From Escherichia phage A6-6, in the sequence record PQ510734.1: a stretch of 64,000 nucleotides of DNA. One strand, given 5' to 3'. Under the pieces are notes generated by a model, which worked only from the letters and a program-made list of their open reading frames with translations, searched no databases and was not told where the DNA came from. Shown here piece after piece: positions 48,796 to 49,381 of the stretch. How positions within the stretch are numbered: position 1 is the stretch's first letter; each line of letters opens with the position of its first letter. A program made the translations under genes and the position numbers.

Positions 48796-48798
48796 CTT

Positions 48799-48826
48799 AG
48801 CCCCGACCGAAAGGTTGGGGCTTTTT
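48799..48826 (+). terminator. intrinsic terminator
   Basis: AGCCCCGACC GAAA GGTTGGGGCT followed by TTTTT. Confidence 0.8.
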
Positions 48827-48872
48827 AGTATAAATAAGTATATTAAAACCACGAATTAAAACAGGAAATAAG

Positions 48873-49346
48873 ATGAAATCATATGCTCAATTTTTAAATG
48901 AAGCGGTGTTAAATGAAGCATCTAGCACCGAAATTCAAGCTGTCGCAAAAGCAGCCATTGCCGCGGGTAAATATTCCTATAAAGATGCTTCCGATGAATC
49001 ACGATTCCAATTTGCTCGTGATATGAAAGCCGAAGGATTTACAGGGAATGCAGTTAGTATGGCTTGGAAAAGTTTAGTTGCTACTGGAGCTGCTTTTGCA
49101 AAGGCTTCAGGTAAACCTGCTCCTAAGGCTGACCCTAAAGCAGCACAAGAAAAAAATATTGCTAAAGGAATTATCTCTAGGTATGAAGCAATTCTTAAAG
49201 AACTTTTGATAATTAAGACCGAAGGCCAGAAACTTGCGCGAGCTCATAGTTTCAAAGATAATCCACATGCTCATGACCTAGAGTATGTTGAAGACATCCA
49301 AAAAATTATTAAAGACCGCATTTGGTCTGCTAAACAAATCAAATAA
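48873..49346 (+). CDS. internal-protein-like ORF with candidate capsid targeting sequence
   Basis: 157 aa, Ala/Lys-rich; N-terminus MKSYAQFLNE-A resembles the T4 IP capsid targeting sequence MKTYQEFIAE with an L-x-E protease site. Confidence 0.6.
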   Translation: MKSYAQFLNEAVLNEASSTEIQAVAKAAIAAGKYSYKDASDESRFQFARDMKAEGFTGNAVSMAWKSLVATGAAFAKASGKPAPKADPKAAQEKNIAKGIISRYEAILKELLIIKTEGQKLARAHSFKDNPHAHDLEYVEDIQKIIKDRIWSAKQIK

Positions 49347-49353
49347 CATTCTT

Positions 49354-49381
49354 AGCCCCGACCGAAAGGTTGGGGCTTTTT
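49354..49381 (+). terminator. intrinsic terminator (exact copy of the 48796-48826 element)
   Basis: Identical CTTAGCCCCGACCGAAAGGTTGGGGCTTTTT sequence. Confidence 0.8.

Follow-up and report, generated by a model that had tools for sequence, protein, structure and literature searches.

The stretch of DNA analysed here, 64,000 nucleotides (nt) of Escherichia phage A6-6 (sequence record PQ510734.1; hereafter the window), belongs to a Tequatrovirus, and its closest record, Escherichia phage ADUt, shows 99.6% identity across the locus of interest. At this locus, between the gene of the small stable RNA rnaC and the e.8 homolog, an open reading frame (ORF) of 157 amino acids (aa), termed ORF A, is enclosed by two copies of one terminator hairpin, T1 and T2. 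The best overall explanation is that ORF A encodes an unannotated T-even internal protein (Ip), which is injected into the host and likely blocks type IV restriction; as a whole, this explanation appears probable to us. That ORF A carries a capsid targeting sequence (CTS), is expressed late and is packaged as an internal protein can be proposed with high confidence. For its role as inhibitor of a type IV restriction enzyme, which was deduced by analogy to known proteins, we see at best an even chance. The locus is composed of the following elements (window coordinates).

47464-48484: 11 tRNA genes, located by tRNA searches
about 48485-48603 and 48610-48748, plus strand: homologs of the small stable RNAs rnaD and rnaC, closing the tRNA operon (coordinates carried over from the Aplg8 annotation and T4)
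48796-48826, plus strand: hairpin T1 (stem 48799-48822), intrinsic terminator of the tRNA/rnaC operon and left edge of the cassette
48829-48836, plus strand: T4-type late promoter consensus TATAAATA, seen in the sequence and conserved in relatives
48863-48868, plus strand: Shine-Dalgarno-like AGGAAA, found by sequence inspection
48873-48902, plus strand: capsid targeting sequence, codons 1-10 (MKSYAQFLNE), with the predicted cut of gp21 after E10
48873-49346, plus strand: ORF A, 157 aa, candidate internal protein of PHROG 2280
49351-49381, plus strand: hairpin T2, exact copy of T1, terminator and right edge of the cassette
49515-49543, plus strand: early-promoter-like site TTTACA-17-TACTAT for the e.8 homolog (right flank conserved with T4; fPS-2 annotates a predicted early promoter)
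49575-49850: e.8 homolog, downstream of T2

Thus, the tRNA genes are followed by rnaD/rnaC, T1, ORF A, T2, the early-promoter region and finally the e.8 homolog. An Rfam search found nothing besides tRNAs in the region around ORF A. The unit itself reads terminator, late promoter, Shine-Dalgarno sequence, CTS-containing ORF, terminator. Judged by these elements, ORF A with its promoter and terminator is a predicted self-contained late transcription unit, as a protein of prohead assembly would require.

A first-pass annotation, made from the letters alone, had noticed a 157-aa ORF starting with MKSYAQFLNE and its likeness to the T4 capsid targeting sequence with its L-x-E protease site. The ORF was recovered at 48873-49346, and the likeness holds at the level of single residues. 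T4 IPII and IPIII, whose sequences were retrieved, both start with MKTYQEFIAE followed by Ala, and in record X04567 residues -10 to -1 of IpII, its first ten, are marked as a removed signal peptide. According to a review of work from the Black laboratory, the first ten residues of IPIII are sufficient to package foreign proteins, and amber-suppressor mutagenesis assigned targeting mainly to residues 4 and 7 and processing to residues 8 and 10 (PMC9026906). ORF A starts with MKSYAQFLNEAVLNEA, the decapeptide MKSYAQFLNE being followed by A11, and with Y4, F7, L8 and E10 it keeps all four functionally mapped positions. Its predicted protease site is L8-N9-E10 followed by A11, with Leu8 at the place where, compared at motif level, T4 IPII and IPIII have Ile. 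The L/I-x-E rule of the protease permits Leu for Ile. A second L-N-E motif, residues 13-15 followed by A16, lies in a segment that is disordered in the structure model. Either A11 or A16 could therefore form the mature N-terminus, with AVLNEASSTEIQAVAK or ASSTEIQAVAK as predicted neo-N-terminal peptides. In a six-frame scan of the window the motif MK[STA][YF]..F[LIVM].E matched only three times, at ORF A and at the starts of two genes at the classical ipIII/ipII position after lysozyme e. As the other two matches are genes of a classical ip locus, the N-terminus of ORF A is not a chance match. Conservation of the CTS at the mapped positions extends over about 470 full-length copies and to distant homologs in Klebsiella, Yersinia and Enterobacter phages.

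The transcription signals around ORF A point in the same direction. The eight bases of TATAAATA are the T4 late-promoter consensus. They lie between T1 and ORF A, 2 nt past the end of the repeat and 37 nt before the start codon, and the chance of finding them on the correct strand within the roughly 40-nt interval between T1 and ATG is about 0.003, calculated from shuffle density. The site is kept at the same place in Aplg8, fPS-2, fPS-65 and G29, where the fPS-65 record annotates it as a predicted late promoter, and it is also found upstream of another cassette of this locus (cassette C, see below) in JS09. No sigma-70-like site was present between T1 and the ATG. With this set of signals ORF A is predicted to be expressed late. 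The 31-nt terminator string CTTAGCCCCGACCGAAAGGTTGGGGCTTTTT, which the first-pass annotation had reported as two exact copies, was indeed found at two places in the window only, 48796-48826 and 49351-49381. No other window match was found at up to 3 mismatches, and none of 100 dinucleotide-preserving shuffles gave any. The repeat lengthens to 36 nt with one mismatch. Each copy forms a 10-bp GC-rich stem (7 GC pairs) with a GAAA loop followed by TTTTT (-20.3 kcal/mol, z about -3.8), and the hairpins are annotated as terminators in the Aplg8, fPS-2, fPS-65 and G29 records. With a GC-rich stem-loop and a T run, T1 and T2 are intrinsic (Rho-independent) terminators.

A comparison of the locus across T-even genomes, which had been proposed along with the first-pass annotation, revealed both presence/absence and replacement polymorphism. 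T4 has no gene between rnaC and e.8 and one hairpin only. Its empty site consists of the left flank of T1, one hairpin and the right flank of T2, a clean difference of 555 bp with the junction within the repeat. T2, RB7, RB55 and PST cover about 60% of the locus query in two pieces, which is consistent with an empty site as far as alignment coverage tells. Full-length A was found in about 470 phage-collection records (511 matches overall, one place per genome), and counted over sequenced T4-like phage genomes the gene is present in about 500, with the BASEL phages Bas37, Paracelsus and TadeuszReichstein as well as therapeutic candidates among the carriers. Cassette B encodes 187 aa starting with MKTYAEFLTE followed by A and occurs in 165 records (for example fPS-65 g135c and bas37_0243). 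Cassette C encodes 208 aa starting with MYTFNEFLAE followed by T and occurs in 144 records (for example JS09_035 and JS98 gp135); its carriers are Mosigvirus, Dhakavirus and several Enterobacter, Klebsiella, Kosakonia and Erwinia phages. B stands alone in G3F10, straight after the single rnaC hairpin, and follows A and T2 in fPS-65, G29, YUEEL01, phiC120 and Bas37. C occupies the site in JS09 and TB004, in JS09 after the hairpin and TATAAATA. Every cassette, whether A, B or C, opens right after a hairpin T-run. Hence, one site is found empty or carrying A, B, A plus B, or C.

The three encoded proteins are all basic and have an N-domain, a Pro/Lys linker and a helical C-domain as their common architecture. 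B scores strongly against PHROG 2280, as does A. In pairwise comparison with A, the similarity of B is insignificant (E = 0.11) and that of C weak (E = 2e-4). The idea of A and B as tandem paralogs was weighed; their pairwise BLASTP match is not significant, despite both scoring strongly against PHROG 2280, and they are treated here, without confidence, as a single very divergent family. Between the Tequatrovirus fPS-65 (1487-2050 of its extracted locus) and the Mosigvirus phiC120 (1481-2044), B is about 96% identical, while A of the window and of phiC120 share only about 74%. This difference between genera suggests that B alone has spread horizontally in recent time.

The two identical terminators had also been read as recombination handles for cassette exchange, and here the claim must be divided. 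The junction falls exactly at the hairpin T-run in every configuration examined, and the T4 site, with its T1 left flank and T2 right flank, is what recombination within the repeat predicts. Moreover, the B terminator differs from T2 but has the tail GGGCTTTTTGGTATCTAGG in common with it. We conclude that the hairpin marks the cassette boundary, records how the cassette came about and facilitates its exact loss. The part concerning exchange fared less well. No further hairpin copy exists in the window, the ipIII/ipII locus included, and a scan of IMG/VR with the 28-nt hairpin core yielded 5 loci, all at the rnaC-e.8 site. Cassettes B and C end in hairpins unlike T2, and T2 itself drifts, with one mismatch in Aplg8 and fPS-2 and a decayed left arm in phiC120. 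For exchange from phage to phage, the long conserved stretches on either side (rnaC and the e.8 promoter region) can serve and are enough in co-infection, and the hairpin is primarily the natural terminator of the tRNA/rnaC operon. We consider the matter evenly balanced between handles and a simpler view, in which T1 and T2 are two working terminators, identical through copying of the rnaC terminator and selection on function. Repoila et al. 1994, in EMBO J 13:4181, are said to have proposed that conserved transcription signals around ip genes mediate shuffling.

After cleavage at E10 the mature ORF A protein would comprise 147 aa with 16.0 kDa and an isoelectric point (pI) of 9.44 (IPII, 9.56; IPIII, 9.65). 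The AlphaFold2 model, built on a shallow alignment, is all-helical and of moderate confidence (pLDDT 74, pTM 0.41). It shows a helical N-domain (about residues 19-78) and, at the C-terminus, a helical hairpin, joined by the disordered linker PAPKADPK. The protein was assigned to PHROG 2280, which is labelled "unknown function". In the alignment with Klebsiella and Yersinia phage homologs the conserved N-domain (AGKYSYKD.SDE.RF.F.RD) is joined to differing C-terminal halves, which indicates mosaicism at the domain level. A search of 5.8 billion proteins gave T4-like phage proteins as the only relatives, none of them named, and the GenBank records listed for A, B and C all say hypothetical. The Pfam search of ORF A returned sub-threshold noise only, PADLOC gave no match, and a Foldseek comparison of the model with PDB structures yielded nothing below E = 0.7. 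The only match in the PDB profile search, to a designer-PPR repeat, was rejected as spurious, with no qualifying stretch.

Variants of ORF A were also observed. Positions 49150-49156 of the window form an A7 homopolymer within ORF A. In fPS-65 an A9 is found there, leading to a 112-aa protein truncated after the linker. Several records show ORF A split in two pieces, and truncated cluster representatives exist (P0006, P0008, P0009). These variants could be due to recurrent frameshifting or to homopolymer sequencing errors.

Virion mass spectrometry, suggested as a check together with the first-pass annotation, turned out to be available in published form for a close relative. Gene g140 of Yersinia phage fD1 (HE956711) is an ortholog of ORF A with about 95% identity. 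Its product is listed as phage-particle-associated (PPAP) at the strict threshold by LC-MS/MS of purified virions, with no T4 homolog (PMC8309999, Table S3). The data show that the g140 protein is made and co-purifies with particles, no more, and lend packaging slight experimental support. The raw fD1 data are deposited as PXD026812; the paper on fPS-2 and fPS-65 holds no proteome. In phage Bas37 (KarlGJung, MZ501089), A corresponds to bas37_0244 and B to bas37_0243. By transposon insertion (HIDEN-SEQ), bas37_0244 was classed as Non-essential with 29 of 34 TA sites hit (10.1101/2025.11.20.689424, Extended Data Table 7). As this ortholog can be disrupted, and T4 and T2 live without the gene, ORF A is dispensable on laboratory hosts, which is as expected of an accessory Ip.

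The same data set holds an observation on cassette B, which is absent from the window. For bas37_0243 only 1 of 48 TA sites was hit and the gene was called "Essential", while its neighbours A and e.8 were freely disrupted (10.1101/2025.11.20.689424). The gene is without mention in the main text of the HIDEN-SEQ preprint. An accessory cassette that is missing from many relatives should not be essential. The near-zero insertions could reflect a real dependency, a cassette lost from the laboratory stock, or a technical artefact; near-zero counts were likewise obtained in Bas37 for Hoc and for a homing endonuclease located close to the capsid gene (10.1101/2025.11.20.689424).

From these findings the following course of events is proposed. 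Early and middle transcription of the tRNA/rnaC operon would halt at T1. Late in infection, the gp55-dependent promoter TATAAATA after T1 would drive a monocistronic transcript that begins at about 48843 and ends at T2. The decapeptide MKSYAQFLNE would direct the protein to the scaffolding core of the prohead, where the prohead protease gp21 would cut after L-x-E (E10, possibly E15) and leave a basic helical protein of about 16 kDa, which is kept in the head with the DNA. The sequence elements behind these four steps, and the behaviour of the cassette, are directly visible in the genomes; that the protein is then processed, injected and aimed at a host enzyme we infer. It would be ejected with the DNA into the next host and act before any phage gene expression. 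Its most likely target would be a host nuclease that attacks glucosylated hydroxymethylcytosine (glucosyl-hmC) DNA, i.e. a type IV enzyme of the GmrSD or McrBC kind. The 555-bp cassette of gene, promoter and terminator would have been inserted at the rnaC terminator, and the duplicated terminator would permit its precise loss. The analogy behind the proposed target is drawn from known cases. IPI, Ip2 and Ip3 are inhibitors of type IV restriction enzymes, each narrowly specific (PMC12373910), and Bas37_0260, a CTS protein at the ipI locus, inhibits McrBC (bioRxiv 10.1101/2025.11.20.689424). Hence, all four CTS proteins with a known target inhibit type IV enzymes.

Several observations weigh against this explanation. 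TATAAATA is commonplace in this AT-rich genome, with 24 copies in the window versus about 10 expected by chance (again from shuffle density). The fD1 preparation was unspecific, as it contained 113-137 of the 277 phage proteins plus 672 host proteins, among the former DenV, NudE, endolysin and thymidine kinase (PMC8309999). In K-12 BW25113, a host with McrA, McrBC and Mrr, bas37_0244 had normal insertion counts, and in the three of six clinical-isolate comparisons examined the gene was unchanged (log2 fold change, log2FC, of -0.11, -0.30 and -0.14, non-significant) (10.1101/2025.11.20.689424). The structure model can be trusted only moderately, and ORF A shows no sequence or fold similarity to a known inhibitor or solved structure in Pfam, PADLOC, PDB and Foldseek searches. 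The missing homology is weak evidence, because the known inhibitors share nothing among themselves beyond the CTS (PMC12373910). Equally, since Ip inhibitors are narrowly specific, nothing can be concluded from a few hosts on which no effect is seen, and the natural diversity of GmrSD is far larger than the transposon host panel. Of the first-pass idea of an injected anti-restriction protein, the CTS protein in a terminator-bounded cassette is thus well supported by its residues, late promoter, basic character and polymorphism, and the anti-restriction role is retained as an analogy to proteins with which it has no similarity.

Three other readings of ORF A were weighed. The protein might be an injected counter-defence factor with a target other than type IV enzymes, such as a different first-line system, directed against the entering DNA or sensing the very first events of infection. 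The evidence for packaging is the same in this case, harmless disruption of the ortholog in K-12 with McrA/McrBC/Mrr would be readily understood, and the all-helical fold of the model is unlike the beta-sheet-plus-helices fold of IPI*. Furthermore, conditional essentiality in one clinical isolate was seen for the orthologs of the nearby accessory genes e.5 and e.6, so the region holds host-specific functions. However, no CTS protein with such a target is known (PMC12373910; 10.1101/2025.11.20.689424), and the Pfam, PADLOC and Foldseek searches point to no target at all. We regard this reading as unlikely. Somewhat less credit is given to a packaged internal protein with no specific anti-defence target, a basic DNA-associated filler of the head that helps to neutralise charge, or to pack or eject the genome; the locus would then vary because it is dispensable and not because of an arms race. 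The basic pI with the Lys/Pro/Ala-rich linker, the lack of a conditional fitness effect of the ortholog in K-12 or the three clinical isolates examined, and the missing similarity to known inhibitors would fit such a filler. Against it, all four CTS proteins of known function are specific type IV restriction inhibitors, the replacement of cassettes that look unrelated (A, B, C) along with divergence at the domain level is a pattern typical of counter-defence genes, and a generic filler would need no late promoter and terminator of its own that are conserved across genera. That ORF A is not packaged at all, but either a gene in decay or a cytoplasmic protein made late, with an N-terminus left over from recombination with an ip gene and with carry-over behind the fD1 detection, is quite improbable: many non-structural proteins were indeed found in that proteome and frameshifted or truncated copies exist (fPS-65 with A9 instead of A7; P0006, P0008, P0009), but the mapped CTS positions are kept in distant homologs as well as in the roughly 470 full-length copies, the late promoter is likewise conserved, and an ORF with a CTS that is expressed late should be packaged because the first 10 residues of IPIII suffice (PMC9026906).

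Returning to the preferred reading of ORF A as an injected inhibitor of type IV restriction, a broader version can be tentatively put forward. The rnaC-e.8 site might be a third Ip locus of the Tevenvirinae, occupied by one fast-evolving, domain-shuffled family (PHROG 2280 with A, B, C and the Klebsiella, Yersinia and Enterobacter variants) of injected inhibitors of defences for which there is no matched countermeasure, B being perhaps indispensable. Candidates for these defences are new type IV variants, of GmrSD or otherwise, and systems of a different class. A, B and C have been left hypothetical because they are missing from T4 and T2, the laboratory models. In work from 2025, a phage's host range on wild E. 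coli was found to depend on its set of Ips. Recognising A, B and C as Ip candidates provides a short, testable list of injected counter-defence proteins and ready bait for the cognate defence systems, and a third locus would correct the view of only two T-even Ip loci. Mechanism and evolutionary logic are textbook for T-even phages, and the biology itself will not surprise a specialist; the family and the locus appear unrecognised as Ip and offer a concrete lead that is cheap to test.

The window also contains the two classical ip loci and further features in the neighbourhood of ORF A.

46439-46508: empty classical ipI site, a 70-bp gap between 57B (45983-46438) and tRNA.4 (46509-46694)
54011-54818, plus strand: classical ipIII/ipII locus with two CTS ORFs, downstream of lysozyme e
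54011-54328, plus strand: CTS ORF of 105 aa, MKTYKEFIAE followed by S
54345-54818, plus strand: CTS ORF of 157 aa, MKTYQEFITE followed by A

With its ipI site empty, the phage lacks an Ip at this place. The same site holds one or two annotated ip genes in JS09 and Bas37 and a small gene without a name in fPS-2. The ORF at 54011-54328 falls into PHROG 3966, "unknown function", and its neighbour at 54345-54818 into a PHROG named "internal virion protein"; the former is probably another Ip that is not annotated as one. Homologs of e.6 (50521-51114) and e.5 (51156-51764) correspond to bas37_0240 and bas37_0239, for which one clinical isolate showed strong depletion (log2FC -6.49 and -3.62, adjusted p = 0), and a deletion plasmid for bas37_0240 was built by the HIDEN-SEQ authors (10.1101/2025.11.20.689424). 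The e.6 and e.5 homologs may be host-specific counter-defence genes. The tRNA cluster with its 11 genes has no segB homing endonuclease, whereas T4 has 8 tRNAs with segB inserted. Its tRNA with the anticodon CAT (47962-48036) is called Met by ARAGORN, and T4 and Bas37 annotate tRNA-Ile at that place. A promoter-like 50-nt direct repeat (49849-49898 and 50068-50117, 74% identity, 219 nt apart) lies upstream of two small ORFs after e.8; it probably represents reiterated early-promoter modules.

Among known systems, T4 IPII and IPIII resemble ORF A in the 10-residue CTS with aromatic residues at positions 4 and 7, (L/I)-x-E at 8-10 and a following Ala. They also share the small, basic mature protein (pI about 9.5), dispensability and a locus that varies among T-even phages. 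Past the CTS there is no sequence similarity, the ipII/ipIII site lies downstream of lysozyme e and the ORF A site between rnaC and e.8, and IPII and IPIII belong to PHROG 7857 and 5341, "internal virion protein", in contrast to PHROG 2280, "unknown function", for ORF A. IPI/IPI*, an inhibitor of GmrSD, and Bas37_0260, an inhibitor of McrBC, follow the course proposed for ORF A, with packaging by a propeptide, injection and action before phage expression, and the ipI locus (57B-tRNA.4), a hypervariable cassette site, is located only about 2.4 kb upstream of the ORF A locus. They differ from ORF A in fold, IPI* being described as a pair of beta sheets between helices and ORF A being predicted as two all-helical domains; the ipI site itself is empty in this phage, and disruption of the ORF A ortholog does not sensitise Bas37 to the type IV systems of K-12. 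Cassettes B and C share with A the site after the rnaC terminator, the CTS-like N-terminus, the basic mature protein and the helical-linker-helical architecture; B differs from the freely disrupted A in being near-free of transposon insertions in Bas37 ("Essential"). Ips are described as encoded at two loci (PMC12373910), and the rnaC-e.8 site would be a third one, unlisted as such in databases and the accessible literature. A further parallel in organisation is given by the polymorphic IP loci of T-even phages, which, like the ORF A site, hold varied ORFs with only the leader peptide in common and conserved transcription signals flanking them. Roughly 10 ORFs were reportedly found at such loci by Repoila et al. 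in 1994.

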